DNA from: Holophagaceae bacterium
GTDB lineage: Bacteria; Acidobacteriota; Holophagae; Holophagales; Holophagaceae
Direction: 5' to 3'
Length of the DNA stretch: 64,000 nucleotides
Assembly (NCBI GenBank): GCA_044229575.1
Contig: JBGAST010000016.1
Coordinates: 1,477-65,476, forward strand
The notes below the pieces were generated by a model. That model was not told the DNA's origin. It worked only from the letters and a program-made list of their open reading frames with translations, and searched no databases. Shown piece by piece: positions 52,573 to 58,474 of this stretch. Each line of letters opens with the position of its first letter. Within the stretch, counting starts at the first letter, position 1. A program made the position numbers and the translations under genes.

Positions 52573-52779
52573 ACCGGACCTCCGGGCCCGTTTGCCCGCA
52601 TCGAGATCACAACGCGGCTTCCCGAAGGGGCTCCGAAGGGCCCGGTCCGGAGGACCCACAGCCAGTAGTGGCGCGTGTTCCGGCCTGGAGGCGCCGGCCT
52701 GCGTCCACTCCTTCGCCCGGTTCCCCGCCCAAGCCACTTGTGACCAAGGTAACTCGGGTTTGACGTTCAAGAGGTGAAT

Positions 52780-53085
52780 ACTGGTGCGGTGAAGCCAGAC
52801 CTGGTTTCACCTTCTTCAAGGAGAAGATCCAAGGCGGGGGAAACTGTTCCATCCCTCCTGCCGGAAGCGCGAAGGGGGCCTCCCCAACGCAGGGCCACGA
52901 GAATCGGCCACGGAAGTCCACCAAAGGAAAAAAACAGAAAGGTCCTTGACCCTGGCCGTGGCCTGTCTGGATTCTAGACAAACTCATCCTATTGCCTATT
53001 TTTTTCTAGGGAGGTTCCGCATGCACAAGCGATTCCGGGTCATGCTGGCCGCGCCGCTGGGGCGGTTCGCGAGCGGAGGCACCCC
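52780..53085 (+). promoter_or_regulatory. Lower-GC upstream region of the porin-cytochrome operon (promoter/leader)
   Basis: Contains a hairpin GGTGAAGCCA-gacc-TGGTTTCACC (about 52789-52812) and an A-run GGAAAAAAACAGAAAGG. It also contains TTGACC, TCTAGACAAACTCATCCTATTGCCTATTTTTTTCTAGG, and a 22-codon uORF with its own GGGAGG. Confidence 0.45.
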
Positions 53086-54474
53086 ATGAAACTGAGCACC
53101 CAAGCGCTCCTGATCGCCGCGCTGGCGTCCACCCCGGGCTGGTCCCAGGACTTCAGCCTGTACAGCACCACCATCGCCCAGATGTGGAAGCAGGATGCGC
53201 CGGGCTTCGACAAGGCCACCTTCGCCCCGGCTACCCAGTTCCTCGGCCTCGATGTCACCAACGTGGGCCGGGACGGCCTGTCCCTCCACCTCTTCGGCTG
53301 GGGCCGGGCCGATCTGGCCGACCAGTCCCTGCCGGAAAGCAAGACCACCGGCGAGCTGACCTACGGCTACGTCCGCTACCGCTTCCAGCAGGCCAACGCC
53401 GAGATCAAGGCCGGCCGCTTCACCGTCAACCAGGGCGTGGCCATCGAACAGGTGGACGGCGTCAGCGCCCAGGCCGACCTCCGCGGCGGCTTCACGATCT
53501 CCGCCTTCGGCGGCCGGCCGGTCCTCTACAAGACCCGGGACGCCGTGACCCAGAAGGACTACGACTTCCAGCGGGACTTCATCTTCGGCACGCGTTTGGG
53601 GCTGAGGATTCCGAAATACGGCGAAGTGGGCCTCTCCTACCTCCAGGACGGGACCAAGGCCGCCAAGGACCTGCCGATCCCGTCGGCCATCGACTACACC
53701 CGGGAGCAGCTGGGCCTGGACATCCACTTGACCCCGCACGCCGCCTTCGACTTCAGCGGCCGGACGGTCTTCGACCTGGCCGACCGCGCCCCGGCACCGG
53801 GCAGCAACGCGGAAAAGCCTTCCAAGATCGCCGAGCACGACTACAGCGCGACGGTGAAAGTGGCCTCGTCGGTCGCGATCTCCGGCACCTTCACCGAGCG
53901 CAACTTCCAGGCCTTCTTCGCCGGCACCAACCTGCCTTCCCTCTTCCGTTCCGTGGAGAAGGACAAGCACCGCGCCTACGGCGGCAGCGTGACCGTCGGA
54001 TCCGGCGGCCCCCTGGAGTTCGTCGCCGACTACCGGCACACCTCCCGCGAGACCTTCGGCGATTCCAACCGCTTCGGCGGGGATGTCCGCTGGACCCTCG
54101 AGAAGCAGAAAATCCAGTCCGGTTTCGGCTACCACCGGGTGACGGCCTCCGATGCGAAGCTGGTGGATTCCGCCACGCCCTCCTACAGCCTGGCGCACCA
54201 CGAAGTGCGGGCCTGGGTCATGGCCGAGAAAGGCAAGCTGACCGCGACCCTGGACGGCGTCCTCCATTCGTACGACGACAAGAAGAACCCCTTCCTCAAC
54301 GGCCGGACCTCCATCTTCGAAATCGTGGGTTCGCTGGGCATGCAGGCCTCGTCGAACCTCCGGATCTCCGGCGACCTCAGCTACGCCGCCAACGCCCTCT
54401 TCAAGAAAGAGGTGCGCGGGCTCCTGCGGGCTGAATACCGGTTCGTCTCGGCGAAAAAGGGAGGCGGCAAATGA
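53086..54474 (+). CDS. Outer-membrane beta-barrel (porin-like) protein, first gene of the multiheme cytochrome operon
   Basis: The signal peptide is MKLSTQALLIAALASTPGWSQ. There are many amphipathic alternating beta-strand segments (GELTYGYVRYRF, GFTISAFGG, FIFGTRLGLRI, EVRAWVMAE, LLRAEYRF). A GGAGG lies upstream of the start. Confidence 0.75.
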   Translation: MKLSTQALLIAALASTPGWSQDFSLYSTTIAQMWKQDAPGFDKATFAPATQFLGLDVTNVGRDGLSLHLFGWGRADLADQSLPESKTTGELTYGYVRYRFQQANAEIKAGRFTVNQGVAIEQVDGVSAQADLRGGFTISAFGGRPVLYKTRDAVTQKDYDFQRDFIFGTRLGLRIPKYGEVGLSYLQDGTKAAKDLPIPSAIDYTREQLGLDIHLTPHAAFDFSGRTVFDLADRAPAPGSNAEKPSKIAEHDYSATVKVASSVAISGTFTERNFQAFFAGTNLPSLFRSVEKDKHRAYGGSVTVGSGGPLEFVADYRHTSRETFGDSNRFGGDVRWTLEKQKIQSGFGYHRVTASDAKLVDSATPSYSLAHHEVRAWVMAEKGKLTATLDGVLHSYDDKKNPFLNGRTSIFEIVGSLGMQASSNLRISGDLSYAANALFKKEVRGLLRAEYRFVSAKKGGGK

Positions 54475-54944
54475 CGCGCAGCAAGGTATTCCTCTCGTCC
54501 GTCCTCGCCCTCTTCCTGGGCGTCCTCACCGCCTGCTCCGTCCTTTCCCCGGAGACGAGCTTCGCGCCGACCCATCCGGAAGCCCTGGGCCAGGGCCGGC
54601 CGGTCTGCTCCAGCTGCCACGGGGACGAGGCCATGAAGGGCGGCCTCAAGACCTACGCGGCCCTGGACCATACGCCGGGCTTCGTGAAGAACCATCGCTA
54701 CCAGGCGAACCAGGACTCGAGCACCTGCGCCTCCTGCCATAGCCAGTCCTTCTGCTCGGACTGCCACGGCGGGAAGGTGCCCATGACCCCCGCCACGAAG
54801 TGGGGCAACCGCCCCGACCGCGACATGCCGCACCGCCCGGGCTACCTCTCCATCCACCGCATGGACGGAAAGCTCGACCCCGCGGGCTGCTTCAAGTGCC
54901 ACGGCCGCGCCAACAACGACAAATGCACGGCTTGTCACCGCTAA
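54471..54944 (+). CDS. Pentaheme c-type cytochrome lipoprotein (157 aa)
   Basis: The lipobox is LGVLTAC. Five CXXCH motifs are present (CSSCH, CASCH, CSDCH, CFKCH, CTACH). The start overlaps the barrel gene stop (ATGA). Confidence 0.9.
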   Translation: MTRSKVFLSSVLALFLGVLTACSVLSPETSFAPTHPEALGQGRPVCSSCHGDEAMKGGLKTYAALDHTPGFVKNHRYQANQDSSTCASCHSQSFCSDCHGGKVPMTPATKWGNRPDRDMPHRPGYLSIHRMDGKLDPAGCFKCHGRANNDKCTACHR

Positions 54945-54954
54945 GGGGCCGCAC

Positions 54955-55593
54955 ATGCGCATAGACACGATCACGATTCGCAGTGCCGCTTCGATGTTCA
55001 AGGCCGTGTGTGCGGTCGCCTTCGCCCTGCTCCTCGGGGGCTGCTCGACCAGCAACACCCAGTCCACCCAGCTCAGCCCCAAGGGCGAACACCCGGCTGG
55101 CTGGCTGCAGACCCACTACGCGGAATTCATCAAGAACCCGGACCAGTGCCGGACCTGCCACGGCTCCACCACGGATCCCAAAGCGGCCGGCGGCATCGCC
55201 AACGTCAGCTGCTTCTCCTGCCATCCCCACGGCCCGAGCCATGCCCCCGGCTGGGAGGCCCCCGGCCAGCACGGCCGCCTCGGCGCCCAGGCGGCCCCCG
55301 GCGTGACCGCCGGCTTCGCCTACTGCGCGAAGTGCCACGGTTCCACCTACAACAACGGGCCCGCCGTCTCCTGCATGACCTGCCACACCAAGTCGCCGCA
55401 CCCGAGCCGTCCCTGGGTGGGCACGTCCGCCTCCGCGCCCAGCCACACCATGACCGACGCGGCCAACGCGCCTGAATGCGTCAAGTGCCACGCCGACGGC
55501 GCCAACTCGACCCTGAAGCCGACGACGCCGGCGCCGCCGGGGACGATCCCGGGCTGCTTCAACAACACCATGTGCCACGGCCGGAGCTTCTGA
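54955..55593 (+). CDS. Multiheme c-type cytochrome lipoprotein (212 aa) with 5 canonical CXXCH motifs plus one C-X5-CH
   Basis: The lipobox is ALLLGGC. The CXXCH motifs are CRTCH, CFSCH, CAKCH, CMTCH and CVKCH, and the C-terminus carries CFNNTMCH. Confidence 0.9.
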   Translation: MRIDTITIRSAASMFKAVCAVAFALLLGGCSTSNTQSTQLSPKGEHPAGWLQTHYAEFIKNPDQCRTCHGSTTDPKAAGGIANVSCFSCHPHGPSHAPGWEAPGQHGRLGAQAAPGVTAGFAYCAKCHGSTYNNGPAVSCMTCHTKSPHPSRPWVGTSASAPSHTMTDAANAPECVKCHADGANSTLKPTTPAPPGTIPGCFNNTMCHGRSF

Positions 55594-55643
55594 TGCGCGA
55601 ATCCCAAGAATCCCCAAACAAACCAACCATAGGAGGACAACGT

Positions 55644-58388
55644 ATGCATCGCAAACCTCTGAAGGTGCTCTGCGGGTTGGTTGCAACCGCCGCTGCCGCC
55701 TTCCTGCTGATCAGCTGCCGGGGCTCCGCAGGCCAGACCGGACCGGCCGGCGCGAACGGGACCAACGGTACCAACGGAAGCAACGGGTCCAACGGCGCGA
55801 CCTATGCCATCGACGCCACCACCCTCTCTCCCGAGGAATGGGGAGAGCTCAGCCTGAAGGGCACGGTCACCAGCGTGAGCGCCGGCGCCTCCACGGTCGT
55901 GAACTTCAAGGTGACGGAAGGCCACAATGTCCCGGTCAAGGGGCTCGGCTTCACGTCCAAGGCCTCCACCGCCGCCTTCGCCGGCTACGCGAACATGGCC
56001 TTTTCCATCGCCAAGCTCGTGCCCGGGACCAGCGGCAGCCCGAGCACCTGGGTCAACTACATCGTGACCGGGAACCCCACCGCCGCGGCCCCGACGACCT
56101 GGGTTCCGGGCCGTCCGAGCACCGACAACATCGGCACCCTGGTGGACAACGGCGACGGCACCTACAAGTACACCTTCCGCCGGGACATCACCCAGACCCA
56201 GGCCCTGCTGGACGCCTATACCTACACCGGCAACAACATCAAGGCCGACCTCGGTGACGTCAGCTACCAGTCCAACTTGACCCACCGGGTCACGGTCTAC
56301 GTTGGCGGCAATGCCCGCGGCACCAGCACCAACACCGCCGACGGCTCCAACAGCGGCGTCCCGGCCATCCGCGTCAAGTTCCCCGCGAACTTCTTCTACG
56401 ACTTCATCCCCGCCACCGGCCAGCCCGTGGGCGCCGCCAACGAGCAGCGCGAGATCACCCAGGTCTCCACCTGCTTCACCTGCCACGCCAAGTTCGAGTT
56501 CCATGGTGAAGGCCGCCAGGACACCAAGTACTGCGTCGTGTGCCACACCGACCAGCGCAAGTACGGGAATCCGGAAGCCACCACCACGCCGACGGGCTAT
56601 GACATCGTGGCCGGGCAGCGGAAGATCCAGAACCACGCCGTAGGCGACTTCGTCAACCTGGTCCACCGCACCCACATGGGCGAAGAACTGAAGAAGGATG
56701 GCTACCAGTACGCCGGCGTGTACTTCAACCACGTCACCTACCCCCAGGACCACCGGAACTGCGTGAAGTGCCACACGGCCAGCACCAGCACCCCCCAGGG
56801 CGACAACTGGTTCAACAAGCCCAGCCGCTTCGCCTGCGGCGCCTGCCACGACCAGGTCAAATGGGAGACCGGTGAGCACCATGCCGGCGGCCCGGCCTTC
56901 GCCGACAACCAGTGCGCCCAGTGCCACGACGCCGCGGCCATCAAGACCTACCACATCCCCGTCCTGCCCCCGAACCCGCTGAACGCGTGGAACGTGGCAT
57001 CCGGCGGCAACAACAACACCAACGCCTCCTACGTGGCGGCCTTCGCCAACAACCTGCCCCCCGGCGCCAGCAAGGTGACCTGGGACCTCAAGAGCTTCAC
57101 CTTCAACAGCAGCGGCAAGCCCGTCGTCACCTTCCGCTTCATCAAGGACGGCGCGCCGGTGGTCTTCAACACCTACCCCGCCAAGCCCGAGATGATGGAC
57201 AACTTCGTGGGCGGCCCGAGCATCTACATCGCCTTCACCGTGCCCTACGACGGGATCCAGTACCCCGCTGACTGGAACGCCACCATCAGCACCTACCTCA
57301 AGAACATCTGGCGCGGGGACGGCAAGGACGCCAACGGCGGAAACCTGCAGGCCGCCGCAAAGGCGACACTGACGGGTCCTGACGGCAGCGGCTACTACGC
57401 CCTGACCTTCACCGACGCCATCATCCCCCCCACCGCGGGCATGCTCAATGCCGGCATCGGCTTCACCTACGGTCTCAGCGCCACCCAGCCCCTGACCCAG
57501 ACCAACGTCCCGGGCTACCCGTACACCCCCCGCGTCCCCAACACGCCGGGCACCGGCCAGGGCGGGCTCGCGGTTCCGGCTCCCAACGTCACCAAGATGG
57601 TCAGTGGCACTCTGCCCGCCGGCTTCGACACGGCCCAGGCGACGACGCCCCGCCGCACTATGGTCACCACCGCGAAATGCAATGATTGCCACGGCGCCCT
57701 GGGCGTCTTCACCGCCAAGACCTACCACGCCGGCCAGCGCAACGACGCCCAGGCCTGCGAGTTCTGCCACAACGGCCAGCGGGTCAACAGCGGCTGGGGC
57801 GTCAACACCAAGGACTTCGTCCACGCCATCCATGGCGCGGGCAAGCGCGTCAACAAGTACTCGTGGGAAGCCTCCGCGGGGTTCAAGTACTGGACCATCA
57901 CCTACCCGAGCGTGCTGAACAACTGCGAAGCCTGCCACGTGCCCGGCTCCTACGACTTCGGCAACACCACCAACGCCGGCGAAGTGCCCAACCTGAACTG
58001 GACCACCGTCGCCACCGGCACGGTGCCGAATCCCGTGAATGTCGTCATCACGGGCAACGAGCCCATTCCGGGAACCTACTGGTCCCCCTTCGTCACCGCC
58101 GGCGCGGTCTACGGCAGCGGCTTCTCCTATAGCGCGAACACCGGCGTTTCCACGCCGGCGGCGCCCACCACCCTGGTGAGTTCCCCCTATGTCGCGGCCT
58201 GCTCCAACTGCCACGACACGCCCATGGCCCTCAACCACATGAAGGCCAACGGCGGCTCCTTCTACGTGCCCCGCAGCAGCGTCATGAACGCCCAGACCGG
58301 CGCCCTCATCAACGCGGAGCAGTGTTTCCTCTGCCACTCCGCCGGCAAGATCGCGGATACGCAGAAGGTGCACATGAACTTCAAGTAA
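55644..58388 (+). CDS. Decaheme c-type cytochrome lipoprotein, OmcA/MtrC-like (914 aa)
   Basis: AGGAGG lies upstream of ATG 55644 and the lipobox is AFLLISC. By hand count, ten CXXCH motifs start at residues about 277, 297, 373, 398, 424 and 679, 705, 761, 853, 894. That gives two pentaheme blocks, each preceded by a roughly 250-aa heme-free domain. Confidence 0.9.
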   Translation: MHRKPLKVLCGLVATAAAAFLLISCRGSAGQTGPAGANGTNGTNGSNGSNGATYAIDATTLSPEEWGELSLKGTVTSVSAGASTVVNFKVTEGHNVPVKGLGFTSKASTAAFAGYANMAFSIAKLVPGTSGSPSTWVNYIVTGNPTAAAPTTWVPGRPSTDNIGTLVDNGDGTYKYTFRRDITQTQALLDAYTYTGNNIKADLGDVSYQSNLTHRVTVYVGGNARGTSTNTADGSNSGVPAIRVKFPANFFYDFIPATGQPVGAANEQREITQVSTCFTCHAKFEFHGEGRQDTKYCVVCHTDQRKYGNPEATTTPTGYDIVAGQRKIQNHAVGDFVNLVHRTHMGEELKKDGYQYAGVYFNHVTYPQDHRNCVKCHTASTSTPQGDNWFNKPSRFACGACHDQVKWETGEHHAGGPAFADNQCAQCHDAAAIKTYHIPVLPPNPLNAWNVASGGNNNTNASYVAAFANNLPPGASKVTWDLKSFTFNSSGKPVVTFRFIKDGAPVVFNTYPAKPEMMDNFVGGPSIYIAFTVPYDGIQYPADWNATISTYLKNIWRGDGKDANGGNLQAAAKATLTGPDGSGYYALTFTDAIIPPTAGMLNAGIGFTYGLSATQPLTQTNVPGYPYTPRVPNTPGTGQGGLAVPAPNVTKMVSGTLPAGFDTAQATTPRRTMVTTAKCNDCHGALGVFTAKTYHAGQRNDAQACEFCHNGQRVNSGWGVNTKDFVHAIHGAGKRVNKYSWEASAGFKYWTITYPSVLNNCEACHVPGSYDFGNTTNAGEVPNLNWTTVATGTVPNPVNVVITGNEPIPGTYWSPFVTAGAVYGSGFSYSANTGVSTPAAPTTLVSSPYVAACSNCHDTPMALNHMKANGGSFYVPRSSVMNAQTGALINAEQCFLCHSAGKIADTQKVHMNFK

Positions 58389-58441
58389 TGTCCCCCGGGG
58401 GCGCGCCTCGCCGGACCCCCGAACTCAAGCTGGAAGCAGGA

Positions 58442-58474
58442 CGAAGAACCCGGGCCCCCTGCCCGGGTTCTTCG
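58442..58474 (+). terminator. Hairpin terminating the cytochrome operon
   Basis: The hairpin is CGAAGAACCCGGG-ccccctg-CCCGGGTTCTTCG, about 55 nt after the decaheme gene stop. The T-tract is weak. Confidence 0.55.

Follow-up and report, generated by a model that had tools for sequence, protein, structure and literature searches.

A probable Holophagaceae variant of the ExtEFG electron conduit carrying an OmcA/MtrC-family decaheme cytochrome

Organization of the porin-cytochrome operon

A 64-kb stretch of DNA from a Holophagaceae bacterium (contig JBGAST010000016.1 of assembly GCA_044229575.1; the whole stretch is called the window, and positions are counted from its first nucleotide) contains four tightly spaced forward-strand genes followed by a hairpin. 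The genes encode a beta-barrel protein and three multiheme lipoprotein cytochromes, named here cytA, cytB, and cytC:

53086 to 54474, forward strand: barrel, 462 residues, with a signal peptide and no cysteines, ExtE family, approximately 22 predicted strands
54471 to 54944, forward strand: cytA, 157 residues, of which approximately 135 form the mature protein, lipobox L-T-A-C22, five CXXCH motifs
54955 to 55593, forward strand: cytB, 212 residues, lipobox L-G-G-C30, five CXXCH motifs and one CX5CH motif (CFNNTMCH, residue 201)
55644 to 58388, forward strand: cytC, 914 residues, lipobox L-I-S-C25, ten CXXCH motifs arranged as 5 + 5

The barrel and cytA genes share an ATGA overlap at 54471-54474, the gaps between cytA and cytB and between cytB and cytC are 10 and 50 nt, and neighbouring genes of the operon are read in different frames. 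No other multiheme open reading frames (ORFs) are present in the window, and the operon stands alone. The identical gene order was found in dozens of independent genomes, which is more than expected by chance. A genome scan yielded 79 loci with the barrel-cytA-cytB core, 56 of which have enough downstream DNA to be assessed; individual loci are designated by L numbers.

An earlier annotation made from the letters of this DNA (the original prediction) had listed the operon packing, the overlap, the gaps, lower-GC upstream DNA, and the hairpin, as well as a 462-residue signal-peptide barrel and lipoproteins of 157, 212, and 914 residues with their CXXCH counts. All of these were confirmed. The start that it gave for the feature, 53021, is the ATG of a 22-codon upstream ORF, not of the barrel gene, which begins at 53086.

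Relationship to extEFG of Geobacter sulfurreducens

The first three genes of the operon have counterparts in the same order in G. sulfurreducens. In pairwise comparisons, the barrel is 38% identical to ExtE (GSU2726; residues 1-462 against 1-431, E 3e-95), cytA is 49% identical to ExtF, which also has 157 residues (E 2e-58), and cytB is 55% identical to residues 1-209 of ExtG (E 3e-65). The identity of cytB to the second internal repeat of ExtG is 42%. The third gene does not encode a full-length ExtG, because it has no equivalent of approximately 480 residues in the C-terminal region of ExtG, and cytC shows no pairwise similarity to ExtG. Based on the full-length, same-order homology of the first three genes, the cluster is assigned as extE-extF-(first extG module)-omcA/mtrC, in which the fourth gene is the only one without a counterpart in extEFG.

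ExtE was found by searching with the barrel from Geobacter argillaceus, which led to the G. sulfurreducens protein AAR36098.1, annotated as "Outer membrane channel". The locus in G. sulfurreducens PCA encodes a 431-residue barrel, a 157-residue protein overlapping the barrel stop, and a 691-residue multiheme protein, followed by a YedY-like molybdopterin oxidoreductase and a Hox-type NiFe hydrogenase. Immediately upstream of this locus is an omb/oma/omc-like trio of 403, 231, and 768 residues with 0, 8, and 12 CXXCH motifs. The context matches the published description of extEFG as GSU2726-2724 (PMC6148476), with ExtE being GSU2726 (PMC7399161), and the locus was identified as extEFG based on the YedY-like and Hox neighbours and the upstream trio.

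More distant similarity links the operon to the porin-cytochrome complexes (Pcc) of the OmbB-OmaB-OmcB type. The barrel profile aligns to an OmbC-like barrel with an hhalign probability of 87% (E 4e-6), at an identity of only approximately 24-28% and over the N-terminal half only. cytA is 28% identical to the region of the first five hemes of an OmaC-like octaheme cytochrome (E 8e-18), with four CXXCH motifs out of five and as many distal histidines in register. Neither cytB nor cytC has significant similarity to the OmcC-like dodecaheme cytochrome. The sequence comparisons indicate that ExtE and ExtF are distant relatives of Omb and Oma that share a superfamily with them, which is not the same as membership in the Pcc. 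The Pcc-like gene order noted in the original prediction thus reflects real common descent, through the homology of cytA to OmaC and of the barrel to OmbC.

The ExtE-type barrel

Searches of Pfam and NCBIfam returned no match to the barrel at E <= 1, and the barrel alignment, used for a profile search of the PDB, matched nothing at E <= 10 in a library that included the MtrB-containing entry 6r2q. Database searches gave 435 relatives, each annotated as "hypothetical" and, where the organism is named, assigned to Holophagaceae or Geothrix, as well as 315 related clusters at the 50% level. The AlphaFold2 (AF2) model calculated from a 35-sequence alignment contains 22 strands, with a predicted local distance difference test score (pLDDT) of 72 and a predicted template modelling score (pTM) of 0.68. 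For ExtE, 21 transmembrane strands were predicted (PMC6148476).

Foldseek searches with the barrel model matched only generic outer-membrane barrels (MOMP, AlgE, OprD, and similar) and are usable for the size class only; MtrB was not in the top 50 matches. The best query-normalised template modelling scores (TM-scores) were obtained for the 22-24-strand barrels FepA (0.54), Cir (0.52), and PapC (0.50), and those for 16-18-strand porins ranged from 0.30 to 0.41. According to the model, the barrel is short owing to short loops, not to a small number of strands. The original prediction had described the barrel as much smaller and had named a barrel of 8-14 strands as evidence against a conduit. 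With approximately 22 strands in the model, the barrel is not small where it matters, and neither AF2 nor Foldseek places it in the 8-14-strand class. The 22-strand TonB-dependent receptors hold a plug of approximately 150 residues, and the mature cytA, with its approximately 135 residues, could therefore fit in the barrel lumen.

The C-terminus of the barrel (window 54430-54471) lacks the usual terminal aromatic residue. Instead, a conserved Y-R-F is followed by a conserved tail ...K-G-G-x-K, in which K458, G459, and G460 are invariant in 35 sequences. The end of ExtE is similar, S-G-K-G-A-A-K.

The two small cytochromes

All 79 cytA orthologs, ExtF included, have five CXXCH motifs, and the ten cysteines, five proximal histidines, and the lipobox cysteine are invariant. 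Five additional histidines, 35, 67, 75, 121, and 129, are also invariant in all 79. Together with the five CXXCH motifs, these histidines indicate that cytA is a very heme-dense pentaheme cytochrome, with five predicted bis-His hemes in a mature protein of approximately 135 residues. Pfam and NCBIfam gave only weak generic matches of cytA and cytB to Cytochrome_C7 and c3 families, and PDB profile searches with the two proteins gave only marginal matches (MtrC domain II, E 0.013; ACIII subunit, E 0.004), which were not relied on.

The true start of cytB may be Met14 (54994). Each of the 56 intact short cytB orthologs has five CXXCH motifs and one C-X5-CH motif, and six extra histidines and the lipobox Cys30 are invariant among them:

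55555 to 55578, forward strand: C-X5-CH motif, cytB residues 201-208, consensus C-F-N-N-T-L/M-C-H, invariant in the 56 short orthologs

The motif occurs twice in G. sulfurreducens ExtG, at residues 201 and 330 (L082). Six distal ligands for six sites argue that the C-X5-CH motif binds a sixth heme, so that the motif is probably a real, non-canonical heme c attachment site, cytB a hexaheme cytochrome, and the operon total 21 hemes. Of the 20-21 heme sites counted in the original prediction, the conserved CX5CH and the sixth invariant distal histidine favour the higher number. The spacing of the second heme site also varies, being CXXCH in cytB, CX4CH in long Holophagaceae forms, and approximately CX9CH in ExtG. 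Judged from these sequences, the cytB/ExtG family seems to tolerate non-canonical heme-motif spacings.

ExtG (L082 11777-13852) has a signal peptide ending in L-W-G-C, the cysteine of which aligns with the invariant lipobox cysteine of the cytB/ExtG family. ExtG is thus probably a lipoprotein, contrary to its published periplasmic assignment. It contains 13 CXXCH motifs and several CX3-5CH motifs by the count made here, compared with the published 12.

The terminal decaheme cytochrome

cytC matches the OmcA/MtrC model TIGR03507 with 432.7 bits (cutoff 209.3) over model positions 6-672 of 672, as expected from its description in the original prediction as an OmcA/MtrC-type terminal cytochrome. 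It also matches PF22113 (MtrC/MtrF domains II/IV) in two stretches (4e-45). The best PDB match is MtrF 3pmq (E 3e-23), to which both pentaheme domains align. The hemes are located at residues 277-428 and 679-898, and the lipobox is present in all 45 full-length cytC orthologs scanned. A good AGGAGG Shine-Dalgarno sequence precedes the start of the 914-residue protein. A 970-residue reading from 55476 was rejected, since it overlaps cytB and has no signal peptide.

Mature cytC contains no cysteines beyond those of the heme motifs and the lipid-bearing one, and a spare cysteine pair is missing in 43 of 44 orthologs. The disulfide of Shewanella domain III is therefore missing from cytC. In Shewanella, a CX8-15C disulfide in beta-barrel domain III is present in all clades and gates flavin binding (PMC4486940).

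The lipid-bearing cysteine of cytC is followed by a repeat:

55749 to 55796, forward strand: Gly-x-Asn tether, cytC residues 36-51, collagen-like (G-x-N)n, mostly G-T-N

The repeat is present in all 44 cytC orthologs at the locus, its length differs by genome, and it may serve as a flexible tether that sets the distance of the protein to the membrane.

Distribution and variants of the operon

Among the 79 loci are those of Geothrix fermentans DSM 14018 (L019; NZ_AUAU01000008.1, around 70-87 kb) and of seven further cultured Geothrix species, as well as the more distant loci of G. argillaceus, a Desulfuromonadales metagenome-assembled genome (MAG), and a Geobacter MAG. The loci nearest to that in the window are all from Holophagaceae, in agreement with the Geothrix-like acidobacterial host proposed in the original prediction. 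Automatic scoring assigned the order barrel, cytA, short cytB, adjacent decaheme to 38 of the 56 assessable loci. L017 and L033, each with a second decaheme copy, also fit on inspection, so that at least 40 of 56, all in Holophagaceae genomes, have the four-gene architecture. The four-gene form is typical of Holophagaceae. The spacing between the barrel stop and the cytA start is -1 nt in 49 of the scored loci, -4 nt in 20, and 0 nt in four, and the barrel never occurs without cytA in loci with enough DNA. The gap between cytB and cytC is 47-228 nt in most loci.

Nine loci have a long third gene with 8-35 CXXCH motifs, the N-terminus of which is the cytB module, usually with no OmcA/MtrC gene after it. 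The neighbour-joining tree of the barrels separates into two clades, one with the short G form and OmcA/MtrC and the other with the long G form. The short-G clade is formed entirely by Holophagaceae, including the locus in the window, whereas the long-G clade combines second copies from the same Holophagaceae genomes (25-35 hemes) with Geobacter, Desulfuromonadales, and ExtE itself. The third genes of the second ExtE-ExtF loci in Holophagaceae are giant (L070 9883-13380, L071 9887-14692, L073 9838-13383, and L079 9897-13400). They encode lipoproteins with 25 or 35 CXXCH motifs, composed of an N-terminal cytB-like module and repeats of approximately 284 residues. The third gene of G. argillaceus has 20 CXXCH motifs. 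Just upstream of the ExtE-like barrel of the same organism, L075 223-1995 is called as a 590-residue cytochrome ORF with nine CXXCH motifs and an uncertain true start; it resembles the "additional decaheme upstream of extE" mentioned in a published footnote (PMC6148476).

The identity of cytC orthologs to the protein in the window falls into two classes, approximately 30-43% and approximately 45-80%, compared with 45-71% for the barrel. The two classes suggest cassette-like replacement of the decaheme. The variability of cytC matches the non-orthologous replacement of outer components reported in Ext clusters (PMC6148476). Two OmcA/MtrC decaheme genes are located downstream of the core in G. 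fermentans (L019 10644-13328 and 14108-16888) and in some other cultured Geothrix species, and likewise in L017 and L033.

Sequences flanking the operon

The features outside the four genes are:

52573 to 53085: upstream spacer, 513 bp, GC content 0.60-0.62, compared with 0.67-0.70 in the genes
53021 to 53089, forward strand: upstream ORF, MHKRFRVMLAAPLGRFASGGTP, 22 codons, with a strong GGGAGG Shine-Dalgarno sequence and a TGA that overlaps the barrel ATG
58442 to 58474, forward strand: hairpin with a perfect 14-bp stem and a 5-nt loop, present in both the minimum free energy and centroid folds

The spacer is probably a promoter and leader region. A promoter scan gave a sigma-70-like match at 52975-53002 (TAGACA-16-TATTTT), which is weak and awkwardly placed relative to the Shine-Dalgarno sequence, and an Rfam scan of the spacer gave no match. 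The upstream ORF has the same 22-codon length, frame, Shine-Dalgarno sequence, and ATGA junction in seven related loci (L003, L061, L004, L005, L006, L026, and L039), and its alignment across related loci is gap-free. It is missing from G. fermentans-type loci, and in L009 the matching motif GGAGGTTCCGCATG is itself the barrel start. A codon-position test revealed no bias and no coding signature in the ORF, and selection on the peptide sequence is therefore not shown. The ORF may be a translationally coupled leader or coupling element rather than a gene for a functional peptide.

The hairpin starts 54 nt past the cytC stop. It is GC-rich and was not called by the terminator scan because it has no U-tract; the terminator-like sites that the scan reported are at chance level. 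The hairpin is probably the 3' end of the operon or a stabiliser of its mRNA.

Proposed mechanism of electron transfer

The operon is likely to encode a Holophagaceae version of the ExtEFG conduit with a shortened third cytochrome and an added OmcA/MtrC surface decaheme, that is, a hybrid of known parts. Judged by its homologies, it is real and conserved, and probably an extracellular-electron-transfer conduit of a known family. The ExtE-type barrel of approximately 22 strands would form the sheath of the conduit. cytA would be positioned on the periplasmic face and insert into the barrel like its relative OmaB, whereas cytB would be lipid-anchored at the outer leaflet and cap the barrel or dock at its outer mouth. 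OmaB was reportedly described by Liu and colleagues in 2014 as the periplasm-side partner in the OmaB-OmbB-OmcB complex. Together, cytA and cytB would form a transmembrane wire of 11 hemes (five plus six), comparable to the ten MtrA hemes that span MtrB. Electrons would pass from cytB to cytC, the putative tethered terminal reductase, which would reduce Fe(III)/Mn(IV) oxides, humics, shuttles, or electrodes. The long-G sister loci without OmcA/MtrC suggest that in this lineage a separate OmcA/MtrC lipoprotein may have replaced the long ExtG extension in its function. We infer the assembly of the complex, the sidedness of its cytochromes, the direction of electron flow, and the substrates from sequence.

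Several points weigh against this interpretation. Its support is indirect, consisting of homology, conservation of hemes and ligands, synteny, complementary distribution, and the model with approximately 22 strands. The first strand of the barrel has low confidence in the model, and the barrel could have 20-22 strands. For cytA, AF2 with database homologs gave an unusable model (pLDDT 57), and the pairwise E-values of the cytochromes may be flattered by their common CXXCH motifs. The complementary distribution is also not perfect: L069 combines an eight-heme G gene with OmcA/MtrC, and in three short-G loci the DNA examined contains no decaheme gene. All three cytochromes have a lipobox, so that their sidedness cannot be read from the sequence, and we know of no lipoprotein sorting rule for Acidobacteriota. 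The published prediction for Geobacter has the opposite orientation, with ExtF outside and ExtG in the periplasm (PMC6148476).

Alternative interpretations

That prediction, of ExtF as an outer-membrane lipoprotein and of ExtG as a periplasmic protein (PMC6148476), is the basis for a reversed orientation, in which cytB would be the periplasm-facing entry point for electrons and cytA an outward lipoprotein in contact with cytC. A long ExtG with 25-35 hemes could bridge the periplasm, and periplasmic "wire" multihemes have been discussed (PMC11492766). However, the invariant lipobox cysteine of the ExtG family argues against a soluble periplasmic protein. cytA is homologous to the OmaC-like cytochrome, the periplasm-side partner in the Omb/Oma/Omc complex, and the porin-Oma-Omc order gives the third gene a surface position. 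Furthermore, loci with the long-G extension mostly lack OmcA/MtrC, a known surface family, and vice versa. Because of the lipobox of the ExtG family, the homology of cytA to Oma, and the nearly exclusive distribution of the extension and OmcA/MtrC, the reversed orientation is considered doubtful. It is also possible, though unlikely, that the ExtE-F-G(short) complex is complete alone and that cytC is a co-transcribed surface reductase, which is loosely associated in the manner of OmcA and is not a stoichiometric subunit. This differs from the proposed ExtEFG-type conduit only in the tightness of binding. It would agree with the variability of cytC (30-80% identity), which is far higher than that of the barrel (45-71%) and is divided into two identity classes, with the tandem duplicates in L019, L017, and L033, with the long flexible tether, and with the only transient complexes of Shewanella OmcA and UndA (PMC4486940). 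It is less compatible with the adjacency of cytC to the core in most loci, with gaps of 47-228 nt, and with the complementary loss of the ExtG extension, which argues for a direct hand-over of electrons.

The conduit could also run inward and take up electrons, for example from Fe(II), reduced humics, cathodes, or partner cells. Porin-cytochrome conduits can work in both directions (PMC8258643), the predicted hemes are bis-His, and no sequence feature fixes the direction. Nevertheless, Fe(III) reduction is a known trait of the cultured Geothrix species that carry the locus, extEFG has a role in the reduction of metal oxides (PMC6148476), and OmcA/MtrC are terminal reductases in Shewanella, which makes an inward conduit quite improbable. 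An ordinary solute porin located by chance next to periplasmic cytochromes would be consistent with the generic Foldseek matches and the missing family annotation, but it is very hard to reconcile with the barrel stop overlapping or abutting the cytA start in every scored locus, with the constant presence of cytA wherever the DNA suffices, with a model of approximately 22 strands, more than the 16-18 of solute porins, and with the homology to ExtE. The operon was rejected as a member of the MtrCAB family. The profile searches identified no homolog of MtrA or MtrB; the barrel of the operon does not match the MtrB/PioB type, and neither the operon nor the rest of the window encodes an MtrA/DmsE decaheme.

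The original prediction had concluded that the locus fits neither the Mtr nor the Pcc architecture and is a candidate new type of conduit, in which two lipidated pentahemes replace the periplasmic decaheme MtrA. The barrel, cytA, and cytB do lack a confident Pfam or NCBIfam family, there is no MtrA/MtrB homolog, and the exact four-gene composition is undescribed in the searchable literature. A conduit unrelated to Mtr, Pcc, and Ext is nevertheless scarcely credible: it is refuted by the strong collinear homology to ExtE and ExtF over their full length and to the N-terminus of ExtG, a genetically tested conduit. The distant homology to OmbC and OmaC and the ExtB/E-family conduit already reported in Holophaga (PMC7399161) also speak against it. 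The two small cytochromes did not replace MtrA by descent, since they correspond to ExtF and the first module of ExtG. The cluster thus largely falls into a characterised family, except that ExtG is cut to one module and OmcA/MtrC is added.

A more specific form of the proposed ExtEFG-type conduit is that the ExtE-ExtF core uses, throughout Holophagaceae, a single hexaheme ExtG module as an adaptor that physically docks the OmcA/MtrC decaheme. We regard it as plausible, but at somewhat less than an even chance. If the adaptor exists, surface terminal reductases would be plug-in cassettes that can be swapped between unrelated conduit families and phyla. The ExtG family would consist of surface lipoproteins with a barrel-docking N-terminal module and a variable wire outside the cell, in disagreement with the published assignment to the periplasm. 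The C-X5-CH motif would be a genuine heme c attachment site, and the OmcA/MtrC clade found here would work without the flavin-gating disulfide.

Previous reports and significance

Geothrix and Holophaga are common reducers of Fe(III) and humics in soils, sediments, wastewater, and bioanodes, and to our knowledge the route by which their electrons cross the outer membrane has yet to be established. The operon is a concrete candidate for this pathway, since it is conserved family-wide, is present in the cultured type strain of Geothrix fermentans, and is tied to a conduit family tested genetically in Geobacter. Parts of it were noticed before. In 2020, a Holophaga MAG was reported to contain an ExtB/E-family conduit, the first probable porin-cytochrome complex from the Acidobacteria (PMC7399161). 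In 2024, expression of extEFG and mtrF homologs was reported for a Holophaga MAG, those of extEFG being up-regulated at high abundance of cable bacteria (PMC11748539), and putative novel conduit genes were mentioned in Geothrix MAGs (PMC6344600). Beyond the passing mentions in these three papers, searches of the accessible literature identified no explicit description of an architecture with a one-module ExtG and OmcA/MtrC, and nothing on its family-wide conservation or its relation to long-ExtG paralogs. The operon does not represent a new class of conduit. Annotation pipelines and two metagenomic papers already flagged ExtB/E- and mtrF-type genes in Holophaga.

The operon appears to be modular, with an MtrC/OmcA-type terminal cytochrome wired to a non-Mtr porin-cytochrome core, which elsewhere bears extensions of 9-35 hemes. 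For Geobacter, it is predicted that ExtG is lipidated and docks through a module at its N-terminus, and that ExtF is an Oma-like partner on the periplasmic side.

Comparison with known porin-cytochrome systems

The operon resembles ExtABCD, as published, in which the barrel ExtB is followed by the small pentaheme lipoprotein ExtC and by ExtD, a larger cytochrome that is also a lipoprotein (PMC6148476); ExtB and ExtE are members of one porin family (PMC7399161). ExtC and ExtB are GSU2643 and GSU2644. However, ExtABCD has an additional periplasmic dodecaheme, ExtA. The OmbB-OmaB-OmcB Pcc has the same order of porin, inner cytochrome, and outer lipoprotein cytochrome, and is distantly homologous; OmaB/C are soluble octahemes, in contrast to the lipidated pentaheme cytA.

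Similar to MtrCAB/OmcA of Shewanella, the operon ends with a decaheme lipoprotein with two pentaheme domains, and it is proposed to form a barrel-sheathed heme wire feeding a surface decaheme, with a probable total of 21 hemes compared with 20. Unlike MtrCAB, it has neither a barrel of the MtrB/PioB type nor an MtrA/DmsE decaheme, and the proposed membrane wire consists of two lipoproteins with five and six hemes instead of one soluble decaheme. cytC is approximately 240 residues longer than MtrC, has the Gly-x-Asn tether, and lacks the domain III disulfide.

The operon differs from extEFG of G. sulfurreducens in that only the first module of approximately 210 residues of the 691-residue ExtG, with its 13 CXXCH motifs, is present, an OmcA/MtrC decaheme gene follows, and no YedY-like or Hox hydrogenase genes are located downstream. 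The host belongs to a different phylum and the barrel to a separate clade. A role in the reduction of extracellular Fe(III)/Mn(IV) oxides was shown genetically for G. sulfurreducens extEFG only (PMC6148476). The size of the barrel is similar in the two systems, with 21 predicted strands in ExtE (PMC6148476) and approximately 22 modelled here. Both begin with a barrel, an overlapping 157-residue pentaheme lipoprotein, and a multiheme protein with a lipobox, and all three are homologous, with identities of 38%, 49%, and 55%.

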